A stretch of 64,000 nt of DNA from Treponemataceae bacterium (GTDB taxonomy: Bacteria; Spirochaetota; Spirochaetia; Treponematales; Rectinemataceae): assembly GCA_963667725.2 (NCBI GenBank), contig CAXXHO010000003.1, forward strand, positions 352,001-416,000. The letters run 5' to 3'. Of this stretch, positions 1 through 30,775 are shown one piece after another. Within the stretch, counting starts at the first letter, position 1. Each line of letters begins with the position of its first letter. A program made the position numbers and the translations under genes. The notes beneath the pieces are model-generated. The model ran no database searches. It had not been told where the DNA came from and saw only the letters and a program-made list of their open reading frames with translations.

Positions 1-139
1 GCTAGGCATAGTCATATCTTCTTAAAGATTCAAGAAAACATTTTCTGTTTCCGGATGATGCGCCTTGATTGCTTTATAATTTGAATATACTGAACAGTAT
101 ATACTCTAGTAATTGAATGGGAACTTTTTACAAATATTT

Positions 140-237
140 ATGTTAGATTGCTTTATTCTTAGAATCATCTGGTTACATTGTTCATCCTAACCGACTCTCA
201 AAGTATTTTATATAGAACTGTATAATTGATGTTAGGC
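140..237 (+). promoter_or_regulatory. Candidate attI-like primary recombination site at the head of the cassette array
   Basis: GTTAGGC at 231-237 is the reverse complement of GCCTAAC (941-947) ending cassette 1. Further IntI-box-like heptamers occur at 142 (GTTAGAT), 172 (GTTACAT) and inverted at 185 (TCCTAAC). There is no attC-type L''/L' palindrome, and a TATAAT lies at 221-226. Confidence 0.5.
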
Positions 238-271
238 ATATTAAGTATTGTTAAAAATTAGGGTTTAATAA

Positions 272-946: not shown

Positions 947-1064
947 CAAATGCTTCAACCTTATAAATCCTTTAGCACGTTTTGTGCAGAAATCTCATGC
1001 ACAAAACGCGCCAAGCCTTCGCAGTAGCTCAGGCACGCATTTAAAGGTTAAGCCAATGTTAGAT
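941..1064 (+). repeat. attC site 1
   Basis: GCCTAAC-AAATG-CTTCAACC ... GGTTAAG-CCAAT-GTTAGAT. R''/L''/L'/R' layout with an extra base in L'' and an internal palindrome (CGTTTTGTGCA/TGCACAAAACG). Confidence 0.92.
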
Positions 1065-1160
1065 TGTCGCCTTCGGCGCAAAAGTAGACATGTTGAATAA
1101 AATATCAATTATATTAAATCTATGCTAGATGAACGCCAAGTGGTAGGATAGGAGATCAAA

Positions 1161-2612
1161 ATGTACTTTAGTGATTTATTTGGTATCGATCAGAAACAAT
1201 TAGATGATTATGGTGCTTTAAATGTCTCACTAATAAATGATCTTCCACTCTTTATTGATCCTTTCTTGTTATTCAATAGCAAGAAAACAGAGTATATACG
1301 CTTACATGAAGAAATAATAAAGTATGTTATCTTTTTACGAGATGAAGCGTTAGCTGGGAAAATTGATAAAGGTTTAATAAGGCGATGGTTTTATTTTTCT
1401 GAGGTTAAACAAAACTGGCTTGGTTTCTGTTTAACTGGAAATTCAGGTACTGGACTTGGTGATGATTTTGCAGAAAGTTTATACGCAAACTTCTCTACAG
1501 TATTAAAAGATTTTGGCAATGAGACAATAGCAAAAAGCCATATTGAGAAATTATGCCTGTTTAAAGAAGGGATTGGAAAAGACAATATTAGTGATTTTAC
1601 AACAAACCTAATAAAACAATATTTACTTGAATACACTCAAGCATTTGCAAAGAAATATCTACAGGCTGATAGATGTAAAGAAATAATTGTTGATAAAGTA
1701 TATTTCAATTATAAGACTAGATCTTGGGTACAGCAAAAATATTTTCTACCCTATTTTGCTAATGACTATGTACTTCTTACACCACTTGATATCTTAACAA
1801 AAGATGATACTTGGATTAATAAAGCGTCATTATTTAGTACATTCAATAGTGTAGTAAGCTCGATTGAAAACATCGAATTGCGTTCACAATTAAATGACTA
1901 CTTCAGAAGCCGACTTCCCAAAGCACCAAGATCAAGAGATATTGAAGCTGCAAAGAGTTCTGTTCTTGCTAAGTATCCTGAGCTTATTGACTACTTTATC
2001 CGGTATAAGGAAAAGTATGGGAATCAAGCTGAAAGAATTAGTAAGAAAAAAGTTGCTGATACATATCAAAAGTTTGTAGCTGAATTAAGTGCATTTAGCT
2101 CAGTTCTGAAAGAAAGTACCAATTTTTATAATACTCCAACAGATTCGTATCAGGAAGCTCTAAAGAGAGTTATGTATCTAAAACAAGTGATTGAGAAAAA
2201 TGATGGATATAGACTTTTCTACCATAAGAATGAAGTAGTTGGAAATGAAAAAGATTTACATATTCTCTTTAGATTAGCTTGGTTCAATACTGTTTTTTCT
2301 GTTGATAGTGAGGTTAATAATGGTAGAGGTCCAGTAGATTATAAGATATCTAAAGGATTTTCTGACTCAACTTTAGTTGAATTCAAATTGGCTAGTAATA
2401 CTAAGCTTGAACAAAATATTAAAAAACAGCTGGAAATATATTTAGATGTAAATGCAACAAAAAAAGGAATAAAGGTAATTCTATTTTATACATTACATGA
2501 AGAAATTAAAGTAAAAGAACTATTAAAAAAATTGAAGATAGATAATAAAGAGAATGTTATTCTAATTGATGCACGAAAAGATAATAAGAAAAGCGCTTCA
2601 AATGTAAAATAA
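1161..2612 (+). CDS. Gene cassette 2: hypothetical protein with a C-terminal PD-(D/E)xK nuclease-like domain
   Basis: 483-aa ORF with RBS GGAG. The C-terminus E-V-N-N-G-R-G-P-V-D-Y-K...V-E-F-K fits the E...PxD...ExK restriction-endonuclease pattern. Flanked by attC sites. Confidence 0.75.
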   Translation: MYFSDLFGIDQKQLDDYGALNVSLINDLPLFIDPFLLFNSKKTEYIRLHEEIIKYVIFLRDEALAGKIDKGLIRRWFYFSEVKQNWLGFCLTGNSGTGLGDDFAESLYANFSTVLKDFGNETIAKSHIEKLCLFKEGIGKDNISDFTTNLIKQYLLEYTQAFAKKYLQADRCKEIIVDKVYFNYKTRSWVQQKYFLPYFANDYVLLTPLDILTKDDTWINKASLFSTFNSVVSSIENIELRSQLNDYFRSRLPKAPRSRDIEAAKSSVLAKYPELIDYFIRYKEKYGNQAERISKKKVADTYQKFVAELSAFSSVLKESTNFYNTPTDSYQEALKRVMYLKQVIEKNDGYRLFYHKNEVVGNEKDLHILFRLAWFNTVFSVDSEVNNGRGPVDYKISKGFSDSTLVEFKLASNTKLEQNIKKQLEIYLDVNATKKGIKVILFYTLHEEIKVKELLKKLKIDNKENVILIDARKDNKKSASNVK

Positions 2613-2620
2613 AGCAATTC

Positions 2621-2725
2621 ATCTAATAAAAGCTTCAATCTTATAACACTCTTTGTCATGGTTTGTGCAGAACAACAATGCACAAACCATGACAAAGAGT
2701 GTTAAGGGTTAAGCCAATGCTCTAC
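2621..2725 (+). repeat. attC site 2 (degenerate core)
   Basis: ATCTAAT-AAAAG-CTTCAATC ... GGTTAAG-CCAAT-GCTCTAC with a perfect 26-bp inverted repeat (TAACACTCTTTGTCATGGTTTGTGCA). AAC is changed to AAT and GTT to GCT. Confidence 0.88.
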
Positions 2726-2788
2726 GGAACCTTTGTGCAAAAATTAAAAATACTTTATATTATCATTATAATATTGAAGGAGCAGTAA

Positions 2789-4237
2789 ATGAGCTGCAAT
2801 TTTAAAGAAATTGATTGGGGTCCAGATGAAGCAAAAAATGATCATAATCTTGAGAAGTATTTTGTAAAGATTCCCCAATATCAAGATATTTTATTGGGGA
2901 AAAAAAGGTATATAATTGGAAGAAAAGGAACAGGAAAAACAGCAATACTAGAGAGTATTCGAATAGAATCAGAAAAGAATCCATTATGGCAGTTTGCTGA
3001 TATATCATTAAAGAATTTTCCATTATCTATAATTAGAAACCTTAGAGATAAAAATTATCGTGATAAATCACAATATGTTCCAGCATGGTCATTCCTGTTG
3101 TTAATTGAATTAGCTAAAATGATATGTTCTGATGAATCCTCTAAGCCATTTGAAGAAGTCTTTCGTCTTAAAGAATTCTTGATTAGCAATAGATTCCTTG
3201 AGGGTACAATAACAGAAACAGCAACATTTCTTGAAGAAAATGAAGCCAAAGTTAATGTTGCATCTGAATGGTTAGGAGCTGAATATACAAAAAAGTATGG
3301 AAAAGAAATTAATACTTCAATTGTGTATCATAGAGTATTAGAAATTCTTATTGCGAAAATTAATCGAATTAATTCTGACTCAACTTATTTTTTATTGGTT
3401 GACGAGTTAGATGAAGGTTATAAAGCGAAAGATTCTAATATTAGGTTGTTAATATTGTCCTTATTGTGGAGCATAGAAAATTTAGCATTACTATTTAAAT
3501 ATGATAATATTAGGCTTCGATGTGTATTAGCGTTAAGATCAGATATTTATGAGACTTTAGAAGATAATGATTTAAATAAATATGATGATTACTTAATAAA
3601 ACTAATTTGGAATCCAAAACTGTTAGGGAATTATTCTATTTTAGAAATTGTTAATAAGAGAATAGTAGCTTCTTATCCTCAATTAGCTGATGATGAAAAT
3701 CCATGGTTGAAAATAGCAAATCAATATGATAGAAGTATTCCAATAAGAAGAGGTGGGCTTTGGGAGTTTATGTATAATAGAACATATGAAAGACCAAGAG
3801 ATATAATTAAATTTTTGAAGATCTGTCAAAACAAAACAAGAAGTAGAATATTAGATTATTCTATAGTAAAAGATACAGAACTAGATTATTCTACATGGCT
3901 TTGGGGAGAAATAAGAGATGAATTACATTCTCATTTAGCAGTATGGCAAGAAGCTTTACAGGCTATAACAAGAGTAAATAAAGGTAAATTTACCAGAGAA
4001 GAATATACCTATCAATTACAAGCTAGTTTAAAAATTGTTAAATGGCTTGAGGCAAATTACAAGACAGTAGATGATCTTATTGAAATTCTATTTGATTATA
4101 GTATAATTGGTAATTACTATCCAGAGACGGAAAGATGGATATTTAAATATAAAGATACAACATTAGCATGGGATCGTGATGCAAATATAATTGTTCACTT
4201 TGGCCTAGTTAAAAAATTAAGAATAAGGACTTATTAA
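2789..4237 (+). CDS. Gene cassette 3: P-loop ATPase (Sll1717/FunZ-like)
   Basis: Walker A GRKGTGKT, Walker B LLVDELDE, RSDIY and RPRDII motifs, RBS AGGAG; flanked by attC sites. Confidence 0.8.
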   Translation: MSCNFKEIDWGPDEAKNDHNLEKYFVKIPQYQDILLGKKRYIIGRKGTGKTAILESIRIESEKNPLWQFADISLKNFPLSIIRNLRDKNYRDKSQYVPAWSFLLLIELAKMICSDESSKPFEEVFRLKEFLISNRFLEGTITETATFLEENEAKVNVASEWLGAEYTKKYGKEINTSIVYHRVLEILIAKINRINSDSTYFLLVDELDEGYKAKDSNIRLLILSLLWSIENLALLFKYDNIRLRCVLALRSDIYETLEDNDLNKYDDYLIKLIWNPKLLGNYSILEIVNKRIVASYPQLADDENPWLKIANQYDRSIPIRRGGLWEFMYNRTYERPRDIIKFLKICQNKTRSRILDYSIVKDTELDYSTWLWGEIRDELHSHLAVWQEALQAITRVNKGKFTREEYTYQLQASLKIVKWLEANYKTVDDLIEILFDYSIIGNYYPETERWIFKYKDTTLAWDRDANIIVHFGLVKKLRIRTY

Positions 4238-4245
4238 AACAAGAC

Positions 4246-4368
4246 GAAGAACAACTGCTTCTACCTTATAAATCCTTTGGTATGGTTTGTGTATAAATGT
4301 CATGCACAAACCACGCTAAGCCTTCGCTTCGCTCAAACGCTGATTTAAAGGTTAAGCCAATGTTATGT
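4246..4368 (+). repeat. attC site 3
   Basis: GAAGAAC-AACTG-CTTCTACC ... GGTTAAG-CCAAT-GTTATGT; clearly homologous to attC1 and attC4. Confidence 0.9.
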
Positions 4369-4439
4369 AGACCCTTCGGGAAATAAAATATTATAAAAAA
4401 ATAAATTTAAGTGTATACATACTAATCTAAGGATGTTGT

Positions 4440-5285
4440 ATGAATCAACCAGGTCCAGTATTTAATATTTTAGTACATCATGTAGAGCTAAGTCCAAGTC
4501 TGAGTGGGCTTGATATTGGATATGAATCTGGTAATTGGAGAAATGATCAATTAGCAGAATTTGTAATGGATTGGTTACCAGAATTTGCATTACCACTTCA
4601 GGAATGTGAAAAAATAGGTCATTATAATGCTGTTTCGTTTATTCGAAGAGCTGCAAGAATTGTTTATGAAACAGAAAAATTTTCAAAACGAGGAGAATTT
4701 GGAGAATTATTTTTACATATAGCAATGAGACAAATATTTAATTCATTGCCCGCAATATCTAAAATATATTATAAATCTGCTAATAATGATACTGTAAAGG
4801 GATTTGATGCTGTACATGTAGTTCCAATGCAAGATGGGCTTGAACTCTGGATAGGAGAAGCGAAATTTTATAGCGATATTAATGCTGCAATTCATGATGT
4901 AGTTAATGAACTAACTATACATACACAAATTGATTATTTACGAACTGAGTTTACATTAATAACAAATAAGATTGATGAAAAATTCCCACATTATGAAGTA
5001 TTAAAAAATTTGATGGATCCAAGAACATCACTAGATGAAATATTTAAAAGAGCTTGTATTCCTGTTCTACTGACTTACAATAGTGAAGTAATAAATAAAT
5101 ATAATAGAAATGATGGCGACTACATAGAAGATTTTAGAAAAGAAATATTAAGTAATTATAAGAAATTCTCAGAAAGCAAATTGCCTGAAAATATTCATAT
5201 ACATTTATTCCTTTTTCCAATAAAAGAAAAGGAACGACTTATTGAAGCATTAGATGCGAGGTTGAAAAAATGGCAACAAATTTAA
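4440..5285 (+). CDS. hamA: Hachiman anti-phage protein HamA (DUF1837)
   Basis: Motifs GEFGELFLH, KGFDAVH and LWIGEAKFY are typical of DUF1837; overlaps the downstream SF2 helicase gene. Confidence 0.88.
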   Translation: MNQPGPVFNILVHHVELSPSLSGLDIGYESGNWRNDQLAEFVMDWLPEFALPLQECEKIGHYNAVSFIRRAARIVYETEKFSKRGEFGELFLHIAMRQIFNSLPAISKIYYKSANNDTVKGFDAVHVVPMQDGLELWIGEAKFYSDINAAIHDVVNELTIHTQIDYLRTEFTLITNKIDEKFPHYEVLKNLMDPRTSLDEIFKRACIPVLLTYNSEVINKYNRNDGDYIEDFRKEILSNYKKFSESKLPENIHIHLFLFPIKEKERLIEALDARLKKWQQI

Positions 5286-7405
5286 GCTATTCGCAGATGA
5301 TAGAAACGTTTAATAGTATTGAAAGTATTAGAAAACAAGAATTTAATTTACTGAAAAATATATCTTCAATATGTAATAATCCAGAAAAACAAGACGAAGG
5401 TAGAGAACTTGTTTTGAGAGTTCTTGAAAATAGAAATACTTTTATTAATACAAAACAAATAGTTAACTCACTAGTTTCTGCAGTAGGACTCTATCCATAT
5501 CTAGATCAGTCTATTATTGATTATAAAGATGCACTTTTGTATGAATACAATCGTCCACTATCATTTAGTAAAAGTAATATTGTATTTCATAAAGAGCAAA
5601 ATGAAATATATCGACGTCTACTTAAAGGTGATAGTGTAATATTAAGTGCTCCAACTAGCTTTGGAAAAAGCAAAATAATTGATGCAATAATTGCTTCTGA
5701 AAAATACAATAACATTGCAATTATTGTACCTACACTAGCTCTTATAGATGAAACAAGAAAAAGAGTATATAACATAGCTGAAAAGTATAAAGTTATTACT
5801 CATACTTCACAAAAGGCTAGTACTTATAATATTTTTGTCTTCACAGCAGAGAGGGCTGTAGCTTATGAAGAATTTCCCAAAATTGATTTTTTTGTCGTAG
5901 ATGAGTTTTATAAAATTGACGCAATTGAAGAAGATAATAGTAGGACAGTAGCATTAAATATTGCCTTCCGTAAGTTGCTTAGTTTTGGTGGTCAGTTTTA
6001 TATGTTGGGTCCAAGTATAGAAAAAATTCCTAAAGGTATAGAAGAAAAGTATCGGTGTTTTTTTTATCCTACAAAATTTAGTACAGTAGTATCTGAAACT
6101 CATTTTGTAAAAAAAAGCGGTAATGATATTTTTGATCTGGTTAAATTATGTTCTGAATTAAAAGATCCTACGCTAATCTATTGTAGATCACCAGCAAGAG
6201 CAAATGAAATAGCAAAAGCTTTTTGTGAATTCTATCCAAATAAGAAAAGTAAGATTTTAGATGGCGCTTCATCATGGGCTTCTAAAAATTACCATCCTGA
6301 ATGGATATGGGCTAAGGCAATTTCAAAAGGTATAGGCATTCATCATGGTAGAATACCAAGATCACTTGCACAGTTTACAATAAAAATGTTTAATGATTTA
6401 ATAATTGATTTCTTAATTTGTACAACAACTTTAATTGAAGGTGTAAATACTAAAGCCAAAAATGTCATAATATTTGATGATACAATAGGTAAAAAAGCAT
6501 TTGATTTTTTTACTTTCAATAATATAAGAGGTAGATCTGGTAGAATGTTTGAACACTTTATTGGACATGTATATCTGTTTTCTGCTCCTCCGTCCAAAGA
6601 ATTGCCTTTTGTAGACTTTCCTTTAGTAACACAAAATGAAAGAGTTCCTGATAGTTTACTAGTTCAATTAGATGAAATAGAGTTAAATCCTAACACAATT
6701 AGTCGTACAAGGCTCTGGACAGAACAAACAATTCTTCCGATTACAATTCTTCGACAAAATGCAACAATTGACCCAGAATCTCAAATAGAATTAGCGGAGG
6801 AAATTATTAATGATATTGATACTGTATATGAATTATTAAATTGGATTGGAATACCTAAATATAGACAATTAAAATATTCATGTGAAATAATATGGAAATA
6901 TTTTTATAAAGAAAATAGAAGTTTCGCGGTCTATTCGGCTAATCAGTTAACTTTTAAAATCAATCAATTGCAAAGAGATCCAAGTATTCCCACAAGAGTA
7001 CTCCAAGAACTAAATCAAGGAAAGTATTCAGCAAAAGACCCCGACGATGCAGTCGAAAAAGTATTATTTTTTGATCGAAATTGGGCAGGATTTGAATTAC
7101 CCAAATCGTTAATGGCACTTTCTAGAATACAGGAGTTTATTTTTAAAAGCAGGGGATTATCAGGAGGAGATTATAGTTTCTTTGCAAGTCAAATAGAATC
7201 ATTATTTCAAGAGCCAATACTTATTTCTTTAGAGGAATATGGATTACCGATGCAATTGACAAAAAAAATAATTCAATATATAGGGACGGATAATGACCTT
7301 GATATTGCTTTAAAATATTTAAAAAGAGTTGATATTGAAAAATTACCAATAAATGAGTTTGAAAAACTATTGGTAAGTGATGTAAAACATTACTTATCAA
7401 AATAA
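5270..7405 (+). CDS. hamB: Hachiman SF2 (Ski2-like) helicase HamB
   Basis: SAPTSFGKS (motif I), VPTLAL, DEFY (motif II), HHG, TTTLIEGVN and GRSGR (motif VI); paired with hamA. Confidence 0.88.
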   Translation: MATNLSYSQMIETFNSIESIRKQEFNLLKNISSICNNPEKQDEGRELVLRVLENRNTFINTKQIVNSLVSAVGLYPYLDQSIIDYKDALLYEYNRPLSFSKSNIVFHKEQNEIYRRLLKGDSVILSAPTSFGKSKIIDAIIASEKYNNIAIIVPTLALIDETRKRVYNIAEKYKVITHTSQKASTYNIFVFTAERAVAYEEFPKIDFFVVDEFYKIDAIEEDNSRTVALNIAFRKLLSFGGQFYMLGPSIEKIPKGIEEKYRCFFYPTKFSTVVSETHFVKKSGNDIFDLVKLCSELKDPTLIYCRSPARANEIAKAFCEFYPNKKSKILDGASSWASKNYHPEWIWAKAISKGIGIHHGRIPRSLAQFTIKMFNDLIIDFLICTTTLIEGVNTKAKNVIIFDDTIGKKAFDFFTFNNIRGRSGRMFEHFIGHVYLFSAPPSKELPFVDFPLVTQNERVPDSLLVQLDEIELNPNTISRTRLWTEQTILPITILRQNATIDPESQIELAEEIINDIDTVYELLNWIGIPKYRQLKYSCEIIWKYFYKENRSFAVYSANQLTFKINQLQRDPSIPTRVLQELNQGKYSAKDPDDAVEKVLFFDRNWAGFELPKSLMALSRIQEFIFKSRGLSGGDYSFFASQIESLFQEPILISLEEYGLPMQLTKKIIQYIGTDNDLDIALKYLKRVDIEKLPINEFEKLLVSDVKHYLSK

Positions 7406-7426
7406 TTATGATGATAGAATAGAGAT

Positions 7427-7550
7427 GCATAACAACCGCTTCAACCTATTAAGCCTTTTGTCATGGTTTTTTCGAGAAGATGACGCAAAAACCACGCCAA
7501 TCCTTCGCTTCGCTCAGGAGCAGGCGTTAAGGGTTAAGCTAATGTTAGGA
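7427..7550 (+). repeat. attC site 4
   Basis: GCATAAC-AACCG-CTTCAACC ... GGTTAAG-CTAAT-GTTAGGA. R'' matches the GTTATGT at the start of the hamAB cassette with one G:T. Confidence 0.92.
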
Positions 7551-7994
7551 TATGGATTATAAAACAATAGAGTATTTATAATGATCCATTATATAAAAAA
7601 ATGGCAACTGTCCAAGATGAGGAGTTAGCTTTTTCCATAATATGAAGCTTTAACAAGACTGGATTTAGCACTTTTAAAACTAGAATAATTGTTAATTAAA
7701 ACAAATTAAAATAAATAATGATAAATTGAAAAGATGATAAATTTAATGAACCCTATGGTACCTCCTTCACCAATACAATTTAACAACTCCTTACATATAT
7801 TTCTAAGCCTCAATTCTGTATACATGTTAGATGCATTCTAGTCTAAACCTGTTTCCATATGGAGGATTGCTATATCCCCTTTATAAGATGTATAAGCTTA
7901 TTATAAATAGGACTTCCGTAACTTATTCATTGGGACAGTAGGATAGATAATGAACCATTATATGGGGGAATGTATATCTCCATCCTGTATATAC

Positions 7995-8093
7995 CCCTTC
8001 ACCATTTCACCAATGATACTAATTACATAACATACAATAAAATAATAATGGTGAAAGGGGGTTAGCATATTTTCAGCACCTTCCTTTCACCAT
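7995..8093. repeat. Iteron-like TTCACCA repeats flanking an AT-rich stretch (candidate replication origin)
   Basis: TTCACCA at 7998, 8006 and 8086, inverted at 8049, and another copy at 7766. ATGGTGAAAGG/CCTTTCACCAT form an inverted pair. Lies directly downstream of the helicase-like gene. Confidence 0.55.
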
Positions 8094-21252: not shown

Positions 21253-23124
21253 TTAATCATCGATTGCTATAGGAAGCGTTATTAAAAATTGGCACCCTGA
21301 CTCTTCAAGATTCTTAACGCTTATTGTACCATCATGTCGCTTGATGATGCCATAACAGATAGAAAGTCCTAACCCTACATTATCCCCTTTTCCTTTATGA
21401 GTTGAATAGAATGGTATGAACACGTTATTTAGGTTTTCGCTTTGAATTCCCGTGCCTGTATCAGTGAATTCAATAGTGGCACGGGATTGTCCCTGAGGGT
21501 CAACAATCGATGAAGTTCTGATCCTGATATCACCTCCTTCTGGCATGGCTTCGAAACTGTTCTTCACTAAATTGAGGATCACCTGCTTTATCTCGTTTCG
21601 GTTTACCATGACCGAGATCTCTTGTTCGCTGGAGTTGAAGGTGATGGCAATTTTTTTGTCACGGGCGCTGATACGAAGCAGGCTGATTATATTCTCGATT
21701 ATTGTGTTCAAGCTGGTTTTCTCACGTCCTGTCTCGGCGGTGCTAGAGAGTGAGAGCAGGTCGCTGACAATGCCAGCGATGTAAGTGATCTCCTCATGGA
21801 GCTCGTCAACTGTCTTATGTAGCTTCACGTCATCGAAAGAAATTTTTATATACTTCAGATAATTATAGATAATCTCGAGAGGATTGTTAATCTCATGCGC
21901 GACTCCTGCAGCGAGGAGCCCGACGGAGGCGAGCTTTTCGGAAAGGATAACCTGCTTCTGAAGCTTGTCGAACTCAGAGATATCCTCAATGGTGATGATG
22001 TTGCCAATACGCTGGTTGTCGTCGAATATTGGGAGGGTTCTCACATTGCTTATTGTTTCGGTTCCGTTGATCGTCAGGGGGACCTGGTAGAACACACCAC
22101 CGTCATCGGTGTGGAGCGACTCGCGGACTAAAGCCAGAACTTTATGGTTTTCCTCCCCGAGGAGCTCCAAAAGGGGACGATTAGCGAAAGTCCCTTCTTC
22201 GAGATGGAAGTATTCCCTGCACAGTTCGTTTACTATCTTCGCCCGTTCCTCCACATCTACAACTATGAGGTTTATGGGCAGCTTCCGGAGGATCGCTTCA
22301 TTATACTTCAGGTACTGGTTGAATTCGCGTTTGTTATTATCGGAATCTGTCAAGGAATAAACCTGTGTATAGGTCAAACGTAGCAGATTCATCTTGTCGA
22401 TGTGGCCGACTTCGTCGGTCATAAGAATTTCACCGTTCTTCACGATGCTCACCCTGTCGGCGAAGTCGTAGACATCTTCGATGCGATGGGTGATGAAGAG
22501 TATCGCCATACCTTTAAGCCGCATCGAGTCCAGGATGTGGAGCACTTTGGGGAGATTGGAGGATGAGAGCTTTTCAAGAGCTTCATCCAGGATCAGGAGC
22601 CTGGGCTTTTTCTGGAGAGCGGCAAGTATCGAGATGAGGGTTCTGTCGGACAGGTTGAGATTGCTTACGATTTCGTTTGGGTTCAGGTTAAAGCTATGGA
22701 GGTCAAATAATACCTGGGCTTGGTTGCTAGAATCCCTCTTTCGCAACATGCCGTGGCGGGCGATTCCTCTGTTTAGAAAGTAGATGTTCTCGGCGACAGT
22801 GAAAAAAGCATTGAGCTGTACCTGTTGATAGACCATCTCGATACCCAGCCGATGGGCGATCGGTATGCTGAGCGATTCAAACGTTTGACCGGCGAACTCT
22901 ATTGTCCCCTTATTAGGCCGTAAATTACCGCTTAGGATCATGCCGAGGGAAGACTTGCCCGCGCCATGTTCGCCGACCAAAGCGTGGATTCGATAGGGAT
23001 AGAGCGTGAGGTTAACGTCTTTGAGCGCCGCGATTTGGCCATAATTATAGGAGATGAATGAAAGACGAGCCAATACGCTTTTTTCGAGGGGGGCAACATT
23101 GGGCTGCTCAGATATTGAGGCCAT
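21253..23124 (-). CDS. Hybrid sensor: sugar-ABC ATPase domain, PAS and histidine kinase
   Basis: N-terminal GEHGAGKS, MVYQQ, LLILDEA and FITHR; central PAS-like segment; H-box GVAHEINNPL, N-box QVILNLVKNS, DTGTG and GLGLS. No transmembrane helix. Confidence 0.88.
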   Translation of the reverse strand: MASISEQPNVAPLEKSVLARLSFISYNYGQIAALKDVNLTLYPYRIHALVGEHGAGKSSLGMILSGNLRPNKGTIEFAGQTFESLSIPIAHRLGIEMVYQQVQLNAFFTVAENIYFLNRGIARHGMLRKRDSSNQAQVLFDLHSFNLNPNEIVSNLNLSDRTLISILAALQKKPRLLILDEALEKLSSSNLPKVLHILDSMRLKGMAILFITHRIEDVYDFADRVSIVKNGEILMTDEVGHIDKMNLLRLTYTQVYSLTDSDNNKREFNQYLKYNEAILRKLPINLIVVDVEERAKIVNELCREYFHLEEGTFANRPLLELLGEENHKVLALVRESLHTDDGGVFYQVPLTINGTETISNVRTLPIFDDNQRIGNIITIEDISEFDKLQKQVILSEKLASVGLLAAGVAHEINNPLEIIYNYLKYIKISFDDVKLHKTVDELHEEITYIAGIVSDLLSLSSTAETGREKTSLNTIIENIISLLRISARDKKIAITFNSSEQEISVMVNRNEIKQVILNLVKNSFEAMPEGGDIRIRTSSIVDPQGQSRATIEFTDTGTGIQSENLNNVFIPFYSTHKGKGDNVGLGLSICYGIIKRHDGTISVKNLEESGCQFLITLPIAIDD

Positions 23125-24430
23125 ACTTTTCCATTTTGTTGTAGAGGGTTTTACGGCTCATGTTTAGAATCTCCGCTGTCTTGGAACGATTGTATTTTGT
23201 GTTCTGGAGAATTCTGATGATCAAGTCCTTGTCCATGTCCTGACGAATATCGACCGACTCGTAATTATCGCCTTTGCCGAATAGATTTACAGGCAGATCT
23301 TCCATTTCGATACAAGCTCCTCGGGACATTGCGGTAGCATAGCTAAGGACATTCTTCAGCTCACGCACATTCCCCGGCCAGCTGTAATCTAAAAACCTTT
23401 TCGCGACATCGTGCGATAATTCTTTACGGCAATTGCCGATGTGCTCAGCAAGGAAGTGATCGACAAGAAGGGGGATATCTCCCTTGCGTTCCCTGAGTGG
23501 AGGGACGGTGAGGACGGCGGCGTTGAGGCGATAGTACAAGTCCTCACGGAAAAGGTTTTTTCGGATTAAATCGAGCAGGTCTTTGTTTGTCGCGGCGATG
23601 AATCGCACATCGATCTTTATTGTCGCGCTTCCTCCCAGTCGCCGTATTTCGCTATTCTGCAGCGTTCTGAGGATCTTGGCTTGGATGCTGAGAGGCATGT
23701 CACCTATCTCATCAAGGAAGAGCGTACTTTTATCAGCTTTTTCAAAAAGGCCTTTGAAGATCGAATCAGCGCCGGTATATGCTCCCTTTTCGTGCCCGAA
23801 AAGCTCGTTGTCTAAAAGGGTTTCTGCGAAGGCTACGCAGTTGATCTTGACCATTGGCAGAGCGCTACGCGACGAAGCAGCGTGAATATAATCGGCTAAT
23901 ACTTCCTTTCCGGTTCCGCTTTCGCCTAAAACTAAAACGGGGAGATCCGTCTGCGCAAGTCTGTCCATCTTATTTCTGAGTTCAGTCATGTGGGAATCAG
24001 AGGAGATGATAGTAACTGAAAGCTCCCGAAGCCGGGATTTTAGATTGGTATTCTCGGTTTGGAGCCTGGAGAATTCGAGAGCTTTCTCAACAATTATCAA
24101 GAGTTCGTCGAAATCGATGGGTTTTTTGACATAGTCGAATGCGCCGAGTTTGAGGGACTGCACTGCCGTCTCTACTGAGGCGAAAGCGGTGATCATGATC
24201 ACGGGAATGGCTTTGTTGATGGCTTGTAGGTTCTTCAATAGGTCGATGCCACTTTCCTTGCCGAGCATTATATCAAGAAGCACAACATCGATTCCGCCAG
24301 CGGAGAATGCTGAAAGCGCTTCCTTAACGCCGGTGACGATCACTGTGTGATAATCCAGATGTTCGAAATTCTGCGCTAAGCTGACGCAGACCTTCACCTT
24401 GTCGTCGACGATAAGGATGGTTTTTTTCAT
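23108..24430 (-). CDS. Sigma54-dependent response regulator (NtrC/AtoC family)
   Basis: REC domain (VDD, LLDI), AAA+ GESGTGKE, GAYTGA, FLDEIG, FREDLYYRL, WPGNVREL and a Fis-type HTH. Confidence 0.95.
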   Translation of the reverse strand: MKKTILIVDDKVKVCVSLAQNFEHLDYHTVIVTGVKEALSAFSAGGIDVVLLDIMLGKESGIDLLKNLQAINKAIPVIMITAFASVETAVQSLKLGAFDYVKKPIDFDELLIIVEKALEFSRLQTENTNLKSRLRELSVTIISSDSHMTELRNKMDRLAQTDLPVLVLGESGTGKEVLADYIHAASSRSALPMVKINCVAFAETLLDNELFGHEKGAYTGADSIFKGLFEKADKSTLFLDEIGDMPLSIQAKILRTLQNSEIRRLGGSATIKIDVRFIAATNKDLLDLIRKNLFREDLYYRLNAAVLTVPPLRERKGDIPLLVDHFLAEHIGNCRKELSHDVAKRFLDYSWPGNVRELKNVLSYATAMSRGACIEMEDLPVNLFGKGDNYESVDIRQDMDKDLIIRILQNTKYNRSKTAEILNMSRKTLYNKMEKYGLNI

Positions 24431-24468
24431 TTTTCTCCATCAACATTACTCACTTCGATATCGCAGAA

Positions 24469-24485
24469 TGAGTAAAAATTACTCA
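24469..24485. promoter_or_regulatory. Candidate enhancer (UAS) palindrome
   Basis: TGAGTAA-AAA-TTACTCA with an extra half-site TTACTCA at 24446, ~115-130 bp upstream of the sigma54 promoter. Confidence 0.6.
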
Positions 24486-24599
24486 ATTAGTATGAGGGCC
24501 CAAAATCATACTGTCAATCTTTATTTTTTGCACTAATTTAAAAGGTTATGCTACAGTGGATTGATAAGCAATCATATTATTACTGCTATTTTGCTTCCA

Positions 24600-24615
24600 T
24601 GGCATGTTTCTTGCT
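24600..24615 (+). promoter_or_regulatory. Sigma54 (-24/-12) promoter
   Basis: TGGCAT-GTTTC-TTGCT matches TGGCAC-N5-TTGCW; divergent from a sigma54 activator gene. Confidence 0.85.
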
Positions 24616-24677
24616 ATGTACTTTGCTGTGACTATCGGAAGTTTTCCGACGAATAATCGAGAAGGAGGAAACAACTA

Positions 24678-25637
24678 ATGAAAAGGATTCGGTCTCTTGT
24701 GTTCATCCTGACCGCGGTCGCGATGGTATTCTCAGCCATGGCCGTAGGCGCTCAGGCAAAGCAAGTCAAGATCGCCGTAGTAAACCTCGCGCAGAGCAGC
24801 CCATACTTCATCGGTATGGCCGAGGCGATTAAACAGGAGGGGGCCCACTTTTCCAACATCAAGGTTATCGTTACCGATGCCAAGGGAGACGCGCAAAAAC
24901 TGACTTCCGACGTAGAAGATGTTCTCGCACAGAACGTCGACGGAATAATCCTGAGCGGTGCCTGGCTCGAATCGGCTCCTGAGGTTTTAGATTCTATCCA
25001 AAGGGCTAAGGTTCCCGTAGTACTCGTCGACAGAATGTTTACGGGGCCAAGTAGCGATAAATACACTAGCTGGGTTGGCCCGGACAATTACCTAATTGGG
25101 CAACAGGTCGGCGCTTATATTGCGAAACGTCTCAAGGGAGTCGGAACCGTCGTAATCCTGAAAGGTGGACCCGCAGACAATTCGATCGGTTATAACCGGA
25201 CCAATGGTGTCCTCTCCGAGCTTAAAAAAACTAAAATCGTAACGATAGCGGCTCCAAACTATGGTGGATGGAGTTCGGATGGCGGCTTTAAGCTCATGGA
25301 AGATCTCCTTGCTAAATACAAGCAGATAGACGCAGTTTTTGCAGAGAACGATTCCATGGCTCTCGGCGCCCAGAAAGCAATTGCTGATGCGAAACGCACC
25401 GATAAAATATTCATTTGTGGCGTCGATGGCGAAAAGGCAGCCCTCGAAGAGATTGCCAAGAAAACAAATTATGCTGCCAGCGGACTCAATAGCTCTGATC
25501 AGATCGGCCGTGCCGGCTTCACGCGCCTCATGACCATACTCGCTGGAGCCGTCCCTGAAAAGAACACAGTTATGGCATCCCCAATAATTACTATCGACAA
25601 TGTCCAGAGGTTCTATTTCCCTGAGAGCGTGTTCTGA
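24678..25637 (+). CDS. Sugar ABC transporter substrate-binding protein (RbsB-like)
   Basis: Signal peptide and PVVLVDR, VGPDN, FAENDSMALGA, GVDG motifs. Confidence 0.92.
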   Translation: MKRIRSLVFILTAVAMVFSAMAVGAQAKQVKIAVVNLAQSSPYFIGMAEAIKQEGAHFSNIKVIVTDAKGDAQKLTSDVEDVLAQNVDGIILSGAWLESAPEVLDSIQRAKVPVVLVDRMFTGPSSDKYTSWVGPDNYLIGQQVGAYIAKRLKGVGTVVILKGGPADNSIGYNRTNGVLSELKKTKIVTIAAPNYGGWSSDGGFKLMEDLLAKYKQIDAVFAENDSMALGAQKAIADAKRTDKIFICGVDGEKAALEEIAKKTNYAASGLNSSDQIGRAGFTRLMTILAGAVPEKNTVMASPIITIDNVQRFYFPESVF

Positions 25638-25646
25638 TCTTCATCC

Positions 25647-25668
25647 AGGCCCCCTCTTTAGGGGGCCT
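25647..25668 (+). terminator. Stem-loop after the SBP gene
   Basis: AGGCCCCCT-CTTT-AGGGGGCCT. Confidence 0.55.
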
Positions 25669-25697
25669 CTGCATCTATCCCAATGGAGAGATTCTAT

Positions 25698-27164
25698 ATG
25701 AAAATGCTCATAGATAGCCAATGGACAGATTCGGCCAACCATCAAACCAAGGTTGTCAAAAATCCTGGTACAGGGGAAGTTATCGACGAGGTTCCCCAGG
25801 CGACCGAAGGCGATATCGATCGAGCTCTCAAGGCAGCAGAGGAAGGCAAGAAGAGGATGAGCGCGACACCAGCGTATCGTCGAACCGAGATACTTACACG
25901 CGCAGCCGAAATAATTCACGAACGTAAGGAAGAGCTTGCGACGCTTTTAGCCAAAGAAAACGGCAAACCAATAGGCCAAACACGCGCCGAAGTCGAGGTT
26001 GCGGGACGTCTTTTTAGCGGATTTGCCGAGGAAGGTCGACGTATGTTCGGTCGTACCATCCCCATGGATTCGGTCCCTGGCAATGAGCGCCACTTTGCGA
26101 TGACCATCAGACAGCCGATCGGCGTTGTTGCCGCGATCGTTCCGTTCAACTATCCAGTGGAGTTGTTTGCCCATAAAGTCGCAGCAGCTTTAGCAGCTGG
26201 CAACGCAGTGATTACAAAACCACCAAGTGCTTGTCCCCTTACGCTCCTTAAAATCGCAGAGATTCTTGAGAATGCGGGACTACCGCGCGGAGTGCATCAA
26301 ATGATAACGGGACCGGGCGAGCTGGTAGGGGAGCGTCTTGCCTTAAGCCCTATAGTGCGCCTTCTATCGCTCACTGGAAGTGTCCCTGTCGGTATCAAGC
26401 TTGCGGAACTCGGTGCGAAGAATCTCCAGAAAATCCACCTGGAACTCGGCGGCAACGATGCCATGATAGTATGTGTAGATGCCGATATTGAGAAAGCGAC
26501 CGATGCTGTCATCCTGGGGCGACTCGCTCGAGGGAATGGCCAAATCTGTTGCGCAGTCAAACGGATTTTTATAGACCGTCGTATCTATAAAGATTTCTGC
26601 GCAATGTTAGTTTTAAAAGCCTCTCACCTCAAGGTTGGGGATCAATTAGCTGAGGATACCGATTGTGGACCCTTAATTTCAGAAAACGCCGCAAGAAAGG
26701 TTGAGAATTCCATAATCGAAGCGGTGAGGGCAGGTGCGAAGCTTCTCTATGGAGGATCGCGCAACGGCGCTTTCATTATACCTACTGTTCTTGCCGAGGT
26801 TTCCCCCTCGATGCCCTTGTTCCAGGAAGAGACCTTTGGGCCGGTGGCCCCTCTTGTGGCATTTCAAAATGTGGAGGAGGCGATACGAATGGCTAATGAT
26901 AGCCAGTTCGGATTACAAGCTTCCGTTTTTACAAACGATATCTCCCAAGCTATGACCATTGCCCGCCAATTGGAAGCTGGAGGCATCATCATCAACTGGT
27001 CTTCAGCGCTACGAGCTGAGAATGTACCTTTCGGGGGGATTAAGTTGAGCGGTCATGGCCGAGAAGCATTGCATGACACCCTTACCGGAATGACTGAAGA
27101 GAAAGCGATCATTATTCACAATGCTTTTCCGCAAGCTCTAAACCGAGAGGTGGTGGAGCCATGA
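25698..27164 (+). CDS. NAD(P)-dependent aldehyde dehydrogenase
   Basis: PFNYP, LTGS, LELGGND, GQICC, EETFGP and PFGGIK. Start set at the second Met downstream of GGAG. Confidence 0.93.
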   Translation: MKMLIDSQWTDSANHQTKVVKNPGTGEVIDEVPQATEGDIDRALKAAEEGKKRMSATPAYRRTEILTRAAEIIHERKEELATLLAKENGKPIGQTRAEVEVAGRLFSGFAEEGRRMFGRTIPMDSVPGNERHFAMTIRQPIGVVAAIVPFNYPVELFAHKVAAALAAGNAVITKPPSACPLTLLKIAEILENAGLPRGVHQMITGPGELVGERLALSPIVRLLSLTGSVPVGIKLAELGAKNLQKIHLELGGNDAMIVCVDADIEKATDAVILGRLARGNGQICCAVKRIFIDRRIYKDFCAMLVLKASHLKVGDQLAEDTDCGPLISENAARKVENSIIEAVRAGAKLLYGGSRNGAFIIPTVLAEVSPSMPLFQEETFGPVAPLVAFQNVEEAIRMANDSQFGLQASVFTNDISQAMTIARQLEAGGIIINWSSALRAENVPFGGIKLSGHGREALHDTLTGMTEEKAIIIHNAFPQALNREVVEP

Positions 27165-28720
27165 ATGCGGCGGCTTTTCTGCGAATGGAGGGGATTACAA
27201 AAAAGTATGGTGGCACGACTGCACTAAAGAATGTAAGCCTGTCTGCTGGGCTTGGTGAAGTTCATGCCATCGTCGGCGAAAATGGTGCCGGCAAATCCAC
27301 GTTGATGAATATCCTCTCTGGCGCTATCGAGCCCGACTTAGGAAGCATTTCCCTGGGGGCTACAACGGTGACGATTCGTTCTCCGCACCATGCCAATTCC
27401 TTGGGTATACGAGCCGTACACCAGGAGTTCAGCCTTGTGCCGCAACTGACTATCGCGGAGAACATTCTCATGGGGAAGTTGCCTACCCGTGGCAAGAGGC
27501 ACATAGTTATCGACTGGCCAAAGGCTTATGAAAAGGCGCGAGGGATTCTCGCCGAATTGGGCTTCGCAGGCATCGATGAACGTACCCGCGTTTTTCGCTT
27601 AAGTGTTTCTCAACAGCAGGTAGTGGAGATTGCCAAGGCTCTCGCCGAAAAGCCGAGCGTCTTGATTCTGGACGAACCTTCAGCGGTCCTATCGAAGGAA
27701 GAGCTCTCTCTCCTCTTTGCTCTGATACGGCGGCTCAAGGCTGAGAAGACGCTGATACTCTACATCTCACATAGGCTCGAAGAAGTATTCGAGATCGCTG
27801 ACCGTATCACTGTTCTCAGAGATGGTGAAGTGATCGATACTGTGATGTGCGATTCCATCGATCAAAATGATCTAATCCGCATGATGGTCGGGCGCTCTTT
27901 TGAGGAAATCTATCCTAAGCGCACGACGAAGATCGGGAAAGAAGTGCTTACCATCCATAATCTCTCTCGCGAGGGGGAATTCAGTGATATCGATTTTTCA
28001 CTTCATCGCGGAGAGGTCCTGGGTATGTTCGGCCTCGTCGGAAGCGGAAGGACCGCTATCGCGAGGAGCATTTTCGGGGCTGATCCCCCAACATCAGGAA
28101 GCATCGAAGTAGATGGTAAAGTATTACGGTTGCATACGCCCCATAATGCAGTGAACACAGGTATTTCCCTTGTGACGGAGGATCGTAAGCGGGATGGGCT
28201 GGTGTTGACGGGCACGATTTGTGACAACGTGAGCCTAGCTTCTTACCCCCGAATGAGCAACGGTATATTCTTGAACCGAAAGCTCCAAGAAAAGCTAGTG
28301 GAGGAAAAGATAAGGGCGCTTGCGCTGAAGCCCCAAAAAATCAAGGCTTTTGTGAAAACATTAAGTGGCGGCAATCAACAGAAAGTAATTCTTGCGAAGT
28401 GGTTGTTGTGTAATACAAAAGTACTCATTCTCGATGAACCTACGAGGGGCGTGGATATCGGCGCGAAAGTCGAGATCTACCATCTCATCAACGTCCTTGT
28501 CGAATCAGGAGTTGGGGTGTTGCTTATATCCTCGGAGATGCCCGAGGTCCTTGGTATGAGTGATAGGATACTTGTGATGCGTGAAGGGCGGCTCGTAGGC
28601 GATATCAGCCGGGATAAAGCCAGTGAAGAGAGAATTCTTCAGCTCGCGGCGGGTGTATCGCGTGAAGCTGATGGGTTAAATATTGCGCTAAGCGGAATTA
28701 CGATGGAGGGTAAGGCATGA
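27161..28720 (+). CDS. Sugar ABC transporter ATP-binding protein (RbsA-like, double NBD)
   Basis: GENGAGKS, ILDEP, ISHR; second half has EDRK, LSGGNQQK and DEPTRGVD. Confidence 0.95.
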   Translation: MNAAAFLRMEGITKKYGGTTALKNVSLSAGLGEVHAIVGENGAGKSTLMNILSGAIEPDLGSISLGATTVTIRSPHHANSLGIRAVHQEFSLVPQLTIAENILMGKLPTRGKRHIVIDWPKAYEKARGILAELGFAGIDERTRVFRLSVSQQQVVEIAKALAEKPSVLILDEPSAVLSKEELSLLFALIRRLKAEKTLILYISHRLEEVFEIADRITVLRDGEVIDTVMCDSIDQNDLIRMMVGRSFEEIYPKRTTKIGKEVLTIHNLSREGEFSDIDFSLHRGEVLGMFGLVGSGRTAIARSIFGADPPTSGSIEVDGKVLRLHTPHNAVNTGISLVTEDRKRDGLVLTGTICDNVSLASYPRMSNGIFLNRKLQEKLVEEKIRALALKPQKIKAFVKTLSGGNQQKVILAKWLLCNTKVLILDEPTRGVDIGAKVEIYHLINVLVESGVGVLLISSEMPEVLGMSDRILVMREGRLVGDISRDKASEERILQLAAGVSREADGLNIALSGITMEGKA

Positions 28721-29670
28721 AAACGACTACACCATTAATCGAGAAGACCAGGTGGATGTTCAAGATACGCTCATCCGATATCATTTTTATCGTGACTTTC
28801 GCGATTTTGTTCCTTGTAAGTTCCCTACTTTTGGACACGTTTTTTACGGCGAGGAATCTCTTCAATATTTCTCGACAAATCGTCACGAACGGCTTTATAA
28901 GCATTGGAATGCTCATCGTCATCCTCGCGGGCGGTGTTGACTTATCGGTAGGTTGTACCGTGGCGCTCTGTGGCATTATGGCTACGGGGCTCCAGAAGAT
29001 GATGCCGACACCTTTTGCGATCCTCGTCGCACTGGCTGTGGGCCTTTTTATCGGGTTCATAAATGGTTTCTTTATCGCGCAATTAAAGCTTCAACCCTTT
29101 ATCGTTACTCTTGCCTCCATGGGCGTCATTCGTGGGGCAACCTATGTCTTCTCCGAGGTTCCACAGTCTCCTGTCGATCCACTCTTTCGTTCCCTTCTCG
29201 GTGGAGGATTCATCGGTGCGGTTCCTGTCGCACCGCTCATCATGATTGTCTTTTATTTTTTAGCCTGGTTCTTCCTCAACCGGACAATCCCGGGCAGAGC
29301 GATCACTGCGATCGGCGGCAACAAGGAAGCCGTAAGGCTGGCGGGAATCAACGTCAAAGGCCATCTTATCCTCGCCTATATGCTCTGCGGATTCTTTGCT
29401 AGTGCTGCGGGCATCATTCTGGCTTCGCGGCTGGGCATCGCTCAACCGAGTGTCGGAGCCGGATTCGAACTGGATGCGATCGCGGCCGTGGTGATCGGCG
29501 GAGGTGTAATGACTGGCGGAAGCGGCGGGGCTGTTGGTACCTTCTTCGGTGTGCTCGCTCTCGGCTTTATCGACAACTTGCTCAATCAGTTCAATGTCCA
29601 GTCCTATTATCAGCAAATTGTTAAGGGAATCATTATCCTTGTGGCGGTAGTCTCGCGCAGGAAGAGCTGA
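28717..29670 (+). CDS. Sugar ABC transporter permease (RbsC-like)
   Basis: GGVDLSVG, PFIVTL, IGGNKEAVRLAGI and ELDAIAAVVIGG. Confidence 0.94.
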   Translation: MKTTTPLIEKTRWMFKIRSSDIIFIVTFAILFLVSSLLLDTFFTARNLFNISRQIVTNGFISIGMLIVILAGGVDLSVGCTVALCGIMATGLQKMMPTPFAILVALAVGLFIGFINGFFIAQLKLQPFIVTLASMGVIRGATYVFSEVPQSPVDPLFRSLLGGGFIGAVPVAPLIMIVFYFLAWFFLNRTIPGRAITAIGGNKEAVRLAGINVKGHLILAYMLCGFFASAAGIILASRLGIAQPSVGAGFELDAIAAVVIGGGVMTGGSGGAVGTFFGVLALGFIDNLLNQFNVQSYYQQIVKGIIILVAVVSRRKS

Positions 29671-29712
29671 TTGGTCTGCTCTCCTCTCCGGCTTCACAAG
29701 AAAGGGCACTTT

Positions 29713-30171
29713 ATGAATGCGTATGAGAATTTGAAGAAACTCGGGTATTCTCTTCCAGACCTGCCACCGCTCGCAGGACTCTATGTAAAGCTGAAACGTA
29801 TCGACCATATGGCCTATGTTTCCGGACAAGGTTGCACTCTCAAAGGACGGCCTGCCTATATGGGGAAAGTGGGGGCCAATCTATCTTTGGAAGAGGGACA
29901 GGAAGCGGCGAGAATCTGCACTCTTAATGCATTGGCAATATTGGATGATTCGCTTGGTTCGCTTGATAAGGTGAAAAACGTGGTGAAGGTGCTCGGTTTT
30001 GTCGCGAGTGCCCATGATTTCAACAGTCAGCCGGCGGTTATCAATGGTTGTTCCCAGCTTCTCATAGATGTGTTCGGCGAAGCGGGGAGGCACGCGCGCT
30101 CCGCTATAGGCGTCAGTGAGTTGCCTGGAAATATCCCTGTCGAAATTGAGTTCATATTCGAGGTGGAGTAA
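29713..30171 (+). CDS. RidA/YjgF family protein
   Basis: YVSGQ, VVKVLGFVAS, INGCS, GRHARSAIG and VEIE; start set at MNAYE. Confidence 0.9.
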   Translation: MNAYENLKKLGYSLPDLPPLAGLYVKLKRIDHMAYVSGQGCTLKGRPAYMGKVGANLSLEEGQEAARICTLNALAILDDSLGSLDKVKNVVKVLGFVASAHDFNSQPAVINGCSQLLIDVFGEAGRHARSAIGVSELPGNIPVEIEFIFEVE

Positions 30172-30272: not shown

Positions 30273-30775
30273 TGTATTTCGTCAAGCCGAAATACGCCAA
30301 AAAATCGTACAAAAGTACCCATCAGCTCGTGGGTAATTTTACCTGACCTTTCTGCCGCATGAGGGCGTGTTTCATTCGGTAGCTTTCGCCCTCGAAGAGT
30401 AGAATGTGGCCATGGTGGGCAAGCCTGTCGATCATCGCGGCAGCCATCTGATCATCAGTAAAGATCGTCCCCCACTTGGAGAACTCAAGATTGGTCGTGA
30501 GAATAACGCTTCGGCGCTCATAGGAATCTGCAATTATCCTGAACAGGAGCTGAGCTCCTTGCCGGTCGACGAGAACATAGCCCCATTCGTCAATGATCAA
30601 GAGATCAGCCCTTGCGATGTACTTTATAAGCCGCTCAAGAGATCCTTCCTTGAGGGCTTCGGAAAGCTTTACCACGAGTTCTGCCGCGGTAAAGAACTTG
30701 GTACGGAAGGAGCGAAAGCACGCGGCAACGCCAAGGGCAGTAGCAAGATGTGTCTTCCTGGTTCCTACGGGGCCA
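30273..30775 (-). pseudogene. istB: IS21-family IstB helper ATPase fragment with probable right end
   Basis: LLIIDEWGY, ILTTNL, IDRLAHH and GESYR; Walker A reads GPVGTRKT; 5' part missing. Confidence 0.85.

Follow-up and report, generated by a model that had tools for sequence, protein, structure and literature searches.

What does a soluble histidine kinase sense when its input domain is the motor domain of an ATP-binding cassette (ABC) importer? This question is raised by a 623-aa kinase (P0001) in the genome of a Treponemataceae bacterium. Its gene lies in a stretch of 64,000 nucleotides (contig CAXXHO010000003.1, positions 352,001 to 416,000; hereafter the window), next to the gene of an NtrC-type response regulator and close to an operon for uptake by a CUT2 (RbsABC-type) importer. 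We consider it probable (roughly 0.6) that the kinase docks on the permease of such an importer, most simply as a dimer that takes the place of the ATPase RbsA, which would make the transporter the receptor. The kinase architecture is real and widespread, and it is an apparently uncharacterised variant of transporter-coupled sensing.

A histidine kinase with an ABC input domain

A single reading frame holds ABC_tran (residues 34-183), PAS_4 (280-385), HisKA (402-461) and HATPase_c (509-620), all above their Pfam cut-offs. Because the hydropathy over 19 residues peaks at only 1.39, the kinase has no transmembrane helix. An earlier note, made from the window's letters alone, had described exactly this soluble fusion. 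By its domains the protein is a HisKA-type histidine kinase: the phospho-accepting His410 is kept in 179/179 family sequences, and the N and G boxes of HATPase_c (N518, N522, D555, G557, G584, G586) are invariant. The predicted monomer model (predicted template modelling score 0.45) has a low-confidence link at residues 253-264. A Foldseek search of this model against the PDB gives separate matches for the nucleotide-binding domain (NBD) and for the PAS-kinase part, with none spanning both among the matches listed.

In the NBD, Walker A (GEHGAGKS), Q100, Walker B (LLILDE) and the H-loop residue H213 are intact, as the earlier note had stated, while the signature (LNLSD) and the D-loop (DEALEKL) are degenerate. 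The same pattern holds in the family (motif counts are from 179 partly redundant sequences). Walker A is kept in 177, the DE of Walker B in 171, the H-loop in 158 and the Q-loop in 157, and all four occur together in 143 members and in the window kinase. The canonical signature is found in none of the 179, and the D-loop proline in three. RbsA N-halves also lack the signature and retain the D-loop proline (99%). Therefore, the degenerate signature, which the earlier note had listed together with the D-loop, is inherited, and only the D-loop change is specific to the kinases.

Site rates of the kinase NBD track those of RbsA N-halves (rho 0.69). The exception is the last strands and helix 240-252, which evolve two to three times slower in the kinases; Y252 is present in 98%. 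This conserved C-terminal helix is likely to be the output path into a predicted helix (264-280) and the PAS domain. In the C-half of RbsA, LSGGNQQ is invariant and the Walker A lysine is mostly replaced by arginine. A passage of PMC3971661 describes that ATP hydrolysis requires a signature supplied by the partner domain. Since neither domain of a kinase homodimer could supply it, such a dimer would be expected to bind ATP and to hydrolyse it poorly.

The input domain thus resembles the CUT2 ATPases (RbsA, AraG, XylG, MglA, AlsA, YtfR) in its descent from an N-half, its intact Walker A and its degenerate signature. It differs from them in being one domain, in its D-loop and C-terminal helix and in its fusion to a kinase, and it falls far under every family cut-off (best score 153 of 850 bits). 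With a single NBD and no second NBD bearing LSGGNQQ, the kinase does not class as a CUT2 ABC ATPase.

One old and widespread family

The NBD and the kinase core occur together in 114 of the best 120 homologues of residues 1-400 (query counted). Names among these are Spirochaetia, KSB3, Desulfomarina and automatic composite labels. The full architecture is found in 77 of 148 new representatives at 50% identity. At least 79 of the 401 genomes of the window's class have a match at E <= 1e-40, with at least 121 matches of which four are NBD-only; these are lower bounds, as four candidates were scored per genome. In the KSB3 phylum, 7 of 9 genomes match. The query has no match in 301 genomes of the phylum of Desulfosarcina (L011) or in 301 genomes of that of Bradyrhizobium (L025), with six candidates scored per genome. 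Single named matches outside are Desulfomarina and Smithellaceae. A pattern-based genome scan was dominated by ordinary kinases and gave family members at 5 of 80 loci.

The earlier note had asked whether the fusion might be unique or an assembly artefact and had proposed a check of the reads. Both possibilities are ruled out by the large family together with the read support. A gap-free single contig spans the whole stretch in three of four sequencing runs; two of these three are from one sample, either of them possibly the source of the DNA, and the fourth run is fragmented and of low depth.

All 105 kinase NBDs fall into a single clade (support 0.999) in a tree of 308 domains, separate from the 96 RbsA N-halves, and therefore descend from one old fusion and not from local duplication. 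The clade groups with the RbsA N-halves, apart from the C-halves, with weak support (0.61). Kinase residues 20-256 align over 245 aa with the adjoining ATPase's N-half and are 33% identical to it; the alignment includes the stretch GEILMTDEV. The earlier note was right about this likeness. It is a likeness to RbsA N-halves in general, not to the neighbour: the adjoining ATPase scores 130 bits while three others encoded in the genome reach 136, 132 and 130, and the kinase is closest to its own neighbour's ATPase in 0 of 77 cases. A recent local duplication of the adjoining ATPase was considered and is ruled out by the single clade.

The genome has a second paralogue, 28% identical, which likewise has an activator and a CUT2 operon. 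In this paralogue (L001:9817-13057, G000:C5) the H-loop His is lost, and the CUT2 genes are followed on their own strand by the regulator pair. A different fusion is seen at L175:3879-5717 (- strand), two genes from an NBD-kinase. There, a 613-aa protein joins a degenerate ABC_tran domain (E 2.5e-4, under the cut-off) to a SpoIIE phosphatase, and a homologue search with it returned only itself.

Linkage to CUT2 importers

Gene neighbourhoods were taken from 100 regions covering 101 of the 120 class matches other than the window's own; the four NBD-only matches and 15 mostly weak or short-contig ones were omitted. Addition of the window, the paralogue and the five loci of the pattern scan gives 107 intact kinase entries, of which two are duplicates; the split gene at L195 is uncounted. 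Related genomes are not independent, so the counts are descriptions and not tests.

A CUT2 ATPase or permease is found within the fetched stretch at 97 of the 107 loci, and a CUT2 importer at 66 of the 68 loci flanked by 7 kb or more on each side. Further KSB3 loci give 6 of 6, one being a repeat of L004. In the window's own genome, an RbsC gene lies within 9 kb of 2 of 18 kinases, both of the NBD-kinase family (0 of 16 for the others; 7% for random positions). The neighbourhood and architecture searches proposed in the earlier note thus found a large family of single origin with a near-constant partner. An NtrC-type gene precedes the kinase within 200 bases in 103 of the 107 loci. This adjacency and the co-varying distances of the two proteins suggest that the kinase autophosphorylates and passes the phosphate to its partner regulator.

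Distances of the regulator parts correlate at 0.60-0.77 among themselves; with those of the transporter parts the values are -0.04 to 0.16. There are 62 pairs in which the kinases are close and the permeases distant, and 21 pairs of the reverse kind. The regulator pair has repeatedly changed partners among unrelated CUT2 systems, staying within that class. This fits the need for a feature that is specific to the class and not to the substrate. The PAS domain is the most variable part of the kinase (mean identity 25%). PAS distance does not follow the distance of the binding proteins (rho 0.08, partial -0.05), and PAS domains of just 14-26% identity occur in kinases that go with near-identical transporters.

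Single-domain ATPases replace the two-domain RbsA at six loci. At L184, L190, L193, L194 and L195, family kinases stand beside CUT2 systems with a single-domain ATPase (~270 aa, signature intact), which offer a natural test of homodimer replacement. Another arrangement is seen at L183:7006-13856, where two full NtrC/NBD-kinase pairs lie back to back, each directed into its own CUT2 operon.

Probable docking on the permease

The earlier note had proposed that the NBD docks on the RbsC-like permease, and a co-fold with the permease dimer as a check. This was run with kinase residues 14-258, the permease dimer, ATP and Mg. The interface score (ipSAE) is 0.75 versus 0.00 for the best of three controls; this mark is met by 116 of 157 solved complexes and by 2 of 215 mismatched pairs, counts that apply only roughly here. 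Runs share at least 97% of their contacts, and the local confidence (predicted local distance difference test, pLDDT) of the partner is 84. In the predicted pose of one domain, permease residues 188-211 face kinase residues 65, 67, 87-91, 97-108 and 116-128. The permease side is a conserved GGNxEAARLSG helix, seated in the Q-loop cleft of the kinase NBD. The cleft matches that described for MalK in parts of PMC7658222 and PMC3971661. By sequence, the PDB yielded no CUT2 permease relative.

A second line of evidence is a 12-residue deletion between kinase positions 73 and 100, where four kinases (L171, L174, L169 and L212, in genomes G198, G091, G170 and G113) have 16 residues versus 28 in 163 of 179. 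The deletion covers residues 87-91, the best-predicted permease contacts, and its bearers form a clade (support 0.998) within one genus. Three of the four loci have enough sequence to show the sigma54 operon, which lacks any transporter and encodes a glycyl radical enzyme with its activase and two zinc dehydrogenases. G113 has no CUT2 system within about 30 kb. Loss of the groove in a clade with a transporter-less operon is suggestive of docking elsewhere in the family.

Several observations weigh against docking. The pass of the co-fold may reflect a general likeness of NBDs and permeases, and a former partner would pass too. The deletion is a single evolutionary event; G198 and G091 do have a CUT2 system 11-13 kb off, in a separate operon. 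The clade retains Walker A, Walker B and the H-loop, and therefore an NBD can be maintained without the groove. Poorly conserved grooves are also seen in several CUT2-adjacent kinases (L167, L170, L127). The predicted contact residues show a slightly higher rate of change in the kinases than in RbsA (log ratio +0.19 versus -0.09 +/- 0.12 for matched positions). Among 29 non-redundant cassettes, the NBD does not co-evolve with its cognate RbsC (rho -0.08, p 0.77), in a weak test which gives just 0.13 for RbsA-N and RbsC, nor with either half of the cognate ATPase. This lack is softened by single NBDs known to serve several permeases, as described in a section of PMC7658222. The genome holds 23 RbsA-type systems, and therefore a promiscuous docking domain would risk cross-talk. 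Finally, a passage of PMC7096432 reports that the fused transporter domain of the kinase CbrA is dispensable for signalling.

Two measures were tried and dropped. A mirror-tree signal between NBD and permease (rho 0.15 in 77 cassettes) disappeared in the 29 non-redundant ones. A score for likeness of the groove failed to divide the loci cleanly by the presence of a transporter, as four CUT2-adjacent kinases fell below the deletion clade.

Taken with the CUT2 linkage, the coupling-helix pose and the groove deletion support the docking claim of the earlier note, binding itself being a prediction of the model. Its name for the kinase, a candidate transport-flux sensor, is doubtful, since the predicted site is one that RbsA must occupy.

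Proposed mechanism

The two halves of RbsA fill both coupling helices of the permease dimer, and therefore docking there excludes RbsA. A kinase dimer would offer two RbsA-N-like domains that fit both coupling helices. In the form of the docking model that we hold tentatively, at somewhat less than even odds, these two ABC domains act as a decoy motor that replaces RbsA on the RbsC dimer. The substrate-loaded binding protein would shift the permease, and the two kinase ABC domains would close or open around bound ATP, which is probably poorly hydrolysed as neither domain has the signature motif. Helix 240-252 would relay the movement via helix 264-280 and the PAS domain to the kinase core. The NtrC-type partner, once phosphorylated, would bind the upstream palindrome and activate the operon for uptake and catabolism from its sigma54 promoter. 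The 2:2 complex, the replacement of RbsA, the sign of the signal and phosphotransfer are parts of this scheme that we infer.

Because the predicted site is that of RbsA, the kinase is more likely to read the state of binding protein and permease in a parallel complex than ATP turnover. Clifton reportedly found in 2015 that the ribose transporter of E. coli forms complexes without RbsA, which would leave room for kinase docking. The simplest account of specificity is that it comes from the binding protein and the permease, with the kinase reading a class-wide coupling helix, since the regulator pair has been re-paired within the CUT2 class and PAS divergence does not follow that of the binding proteins.

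Alternative explanations

The kinase could also sense in the cytoplasm without any contact. The PAS domain, or a PAS/NBD unit, would bind an imported sugar or metabolite, the ABC domain would be an ATP/ADP-dependent dimer switch that gates the kinase according to the energy state, and CUT2 linkage would reflect targets that are sugar-type catabolic operons. The absence of co-evolution with the transporter, the mildly relaxed interface, the variability of the PAS domain, the CbrA precedent and the deletion clade, which keeps its ATP motifs and drives an enzyme-only operon, all suit this explanation. We nevertheless regard it as unlikely. A PAS domain that binds the imported substrate does not agree with PAS distances that ignore those of the binding proteins, or with near-identical transporters served by very different PAS domains. 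It leaves the near-constant CUT2 partner (66/68) unexplained, and the groove still co-folds on the permease.

Less likely again, and in our view improbable, is sensing of flux or state on a working transporter. Here the kinase NBD would bind RbsA, either by pairing with the signature-bearing C-half or from the side, or would share the permease, and would report ATP turnover as BceS does for BceAB. The two domains are complementary, the kinase NBD having Walker A, Walker B and the H-loop and no signature and the RbsA C-half the reverse, and the catalytic Glu and His are retained in the kinase NBD. In CUT2 ATPases the N-half is covalently joined to the C-half. Pairing is made awkward by this tether, which holds RbsA's own N-half at the C-half site. 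The single-domain ATPases at six loci, the lack of co-evolution with either RbsA half and the diverged D-loop (proline in 3/179) also argue against it.

A vestigial ABC domain, left over from an old gene fusion and without part in signalling, might be read from the paralogue without its H-loop His and from a groove and helical subdomain that have drifted from RbsA. This is very improbable, because ATP-binding residues are kept in a family that reaches down to ~28% identity, the C-terminal helix is under new constraint and the single origin implies a long history.

Relation to known systems

In BceRS-BceAB of Firmicutes, a kinase without an extracellular ligand-binding domain signals via an adjoining ABC transporter and regulates the genes of that transporter, according to parts of PMC6978683, PMC3023708 and PMC4513084. 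The present kinase is similar in lacking such a domain and in adjoining an ABC transporter whose genes it probably controls. BceS differs in being an intramembrane-sensing kinase and a protein distinct from its transporter, which confers resistance and has a large extracytoplasmic loop. The present kinase is soluble, has its own NBD, feeds a sigma54 activator and has as its neighbour a CUT2 importer that depends on a binding protein. It has no hydrophobic segment (maximum 1.39), and the permease is a 317-aa BPD_transp_2 protein that works with a binding protein.

PhoR is membrane-anchored. If the docking model holds, there is a likeness to PstSCAB-PhoU-PhoR, where a binding-protein-dependent ABC importer is the receptor for a PAS-containing kinase, as a section of PMC6978683 describes. 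Unlike here, PhoU bridges PstB and PhoR, and PhoR has no NBD. A scan of ten window genes, beyond which no search for PhoU was made, shows no PhoU-like gene, no PstSCAB and no OmpR-type PhoB; the regulator is NtrC-type.

The SLC5/STAC kinases CbrA, CrbS and RpuS also fuse a transporter-derived domain to PAS and a kinase core, as parts of PMC9100948 show, and CbrA controls nutrient use via its regulator CbrB, as stated in part of PMC7096432. Their domain is a membrane symporter that transports alone and, in CbrA, is dispensable for signalling (the same passages of PMC7096432), unlike the soluble ATPase domain here, which needs a partner. The window kinase has no Pfam match to an SLC5 symporter or STAC domain and no membrane segment.

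The top NCBIfam matches are AtoS for the PAS-kinase part (222 bits, cut-off 646) and AtoC for the regulator (421 bits, cut-off 714). The N-terminal part of AtoS is unmatched, with the ABC domain in its place, and no NCBIfam match covers both kinase halves among the best 25 listed. Public annotations already give both domains as composite labels. No description of an NBD-kinase fusion was found in the searchable full-text literature, outside which most subscription papers lie, in agreement with the earlier note, which knew of no characterised example; passages of the KSB3 genome paper (PMC4312070) make no mention of it.

Regulator, promoter and uptake operon

As shown in Table 1, the regulator gene overlaps the start of the kinase gene and is divergent from the ABC operon. 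The 247 bases between regulator and operon carry a sigma54 motif and a palindrome, and rpoN is found in the genome, in line with the sigma54 control that the earlier note had read here. With its REC-AAA+-HTH domains, sigma54 promoter and upstream palindrome, the system classes as NtrC-type sigma54 activation. In the family, GAYTGA, GAFTGA and GAFTDA variants are seen in the GAFTGA-type loop of the regulator. Of 67 divergent loci, 48 have the sigma54 motif directed at the transporter, and none has it directed at the regulator. A strong palindrome of the TGT-N11-ACA type lies upstream of the motif in 18 of 53 loci, versus 0.53 in shuffles. At the level of sequence, an output path from the activator via the sigma54 promoter to the uptake operon therefore has good support. 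NCBIfam gives no clue to the substrate, the binding protein and the dehydrogenase being under every family cut-off. At L135:10885-11544 the partner regulator is REC-HTH_8 only, without an AAA+ domain.

Table 1. Features of the kinase locus and the divergent uptake operon (window positions)
Feature	Position	Strand	Evidence
NBD-PAS-HisKA-HATPase soluble histidine kinase (P0001), 623 aa	21253..23124	-	Open reading frame (ORF), Pfam, hydropathy, model
RbsA-N-half-like ABC nucleotide-binding domain, kinase residues 18-252	22369..23073	-	Alignment, motifs, site rates
PAS domain of kinase, residues 280-385, predicted helix 264-280 ahead	21970..22287	-	Pfam, model
HisKA (phospho-His410) and HATPase_c kinase core	21265..21921	-	Pfam, conservation
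NtrC/AtoC-type response regulator (REC, Sigma54_activat AAA+, Fis HTH_8), overlaps kinase start	23108..24430	-	Pfam, NCBIfam
Further half-site of candidate activator palindrome	24446-24452
Perfect 7-3-7 palindrome, candidate upstream activator site, genome's only exact copy	24469..24485	.	Motif search
Sigma54 -24/-12 promoter motif, directed at ABC operon	24600..24615	+	Motif search
RbsB-like periplasmic binding protein (Peripla_BP_4)	24678..25637	+	Pfam, NCBIfam
Aldehyde dehydrogenase; top NCBIfam match lactaldehyde dehydrogenase, under cut-off	25683..27164	+	Pfam, NCBIfam
RbsA/AraG-like two-domain CUT2 ATPase	27161..28720	+	Pfam, NCBIfam
RbsC-like permease (BPD_transp_2), 317 aa; docking predicted at coupling-helix region 188-211	28717..29670	+	Pfam, NCBIfam, co-fold
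RidA/YjgF-family protein, probably the operon's final gene	29671..30171	+	ORF, Pfam

Just past the operon (30322-30675, - strand) is a short ORF that we take to be a fragment resembling the IS21 helper ATPase IstB. At the other side, positions 1-8000 of the window have a G+C content of about 29-30% versus 55-56% in the main contigs, which suggests a foreign island; the kinase locus is at 44-51%.

Significance

Even without docking, an ABC NBD as the input domain of a kinase seems undescribed in searchable papers. If docking is true, this is a new wiring of transport to gene control, in which a kinase has captured the motor domain of a transporter and reads the permease at the motor's docking site. 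In the decoy form, one binding protein and permease would serve as a transporter with RbsA or as a transmembrane receptor with the kinase, and ATP-driven closure of the NBDs would be converted directly into kinase output. One soluble kinase family could then be re-paired with any CUT2 importer for a new sugar-like substrate. Being soluble and modular, the kinase could also serve in ligand-induced reporters and as a tool for studying CUT2 permeases. For free-living spirochaetes and KSB3 bacteria with many sugar importers, docking would explain importer-by-importer regulation by a sensor that has no substrate pocket of its own.

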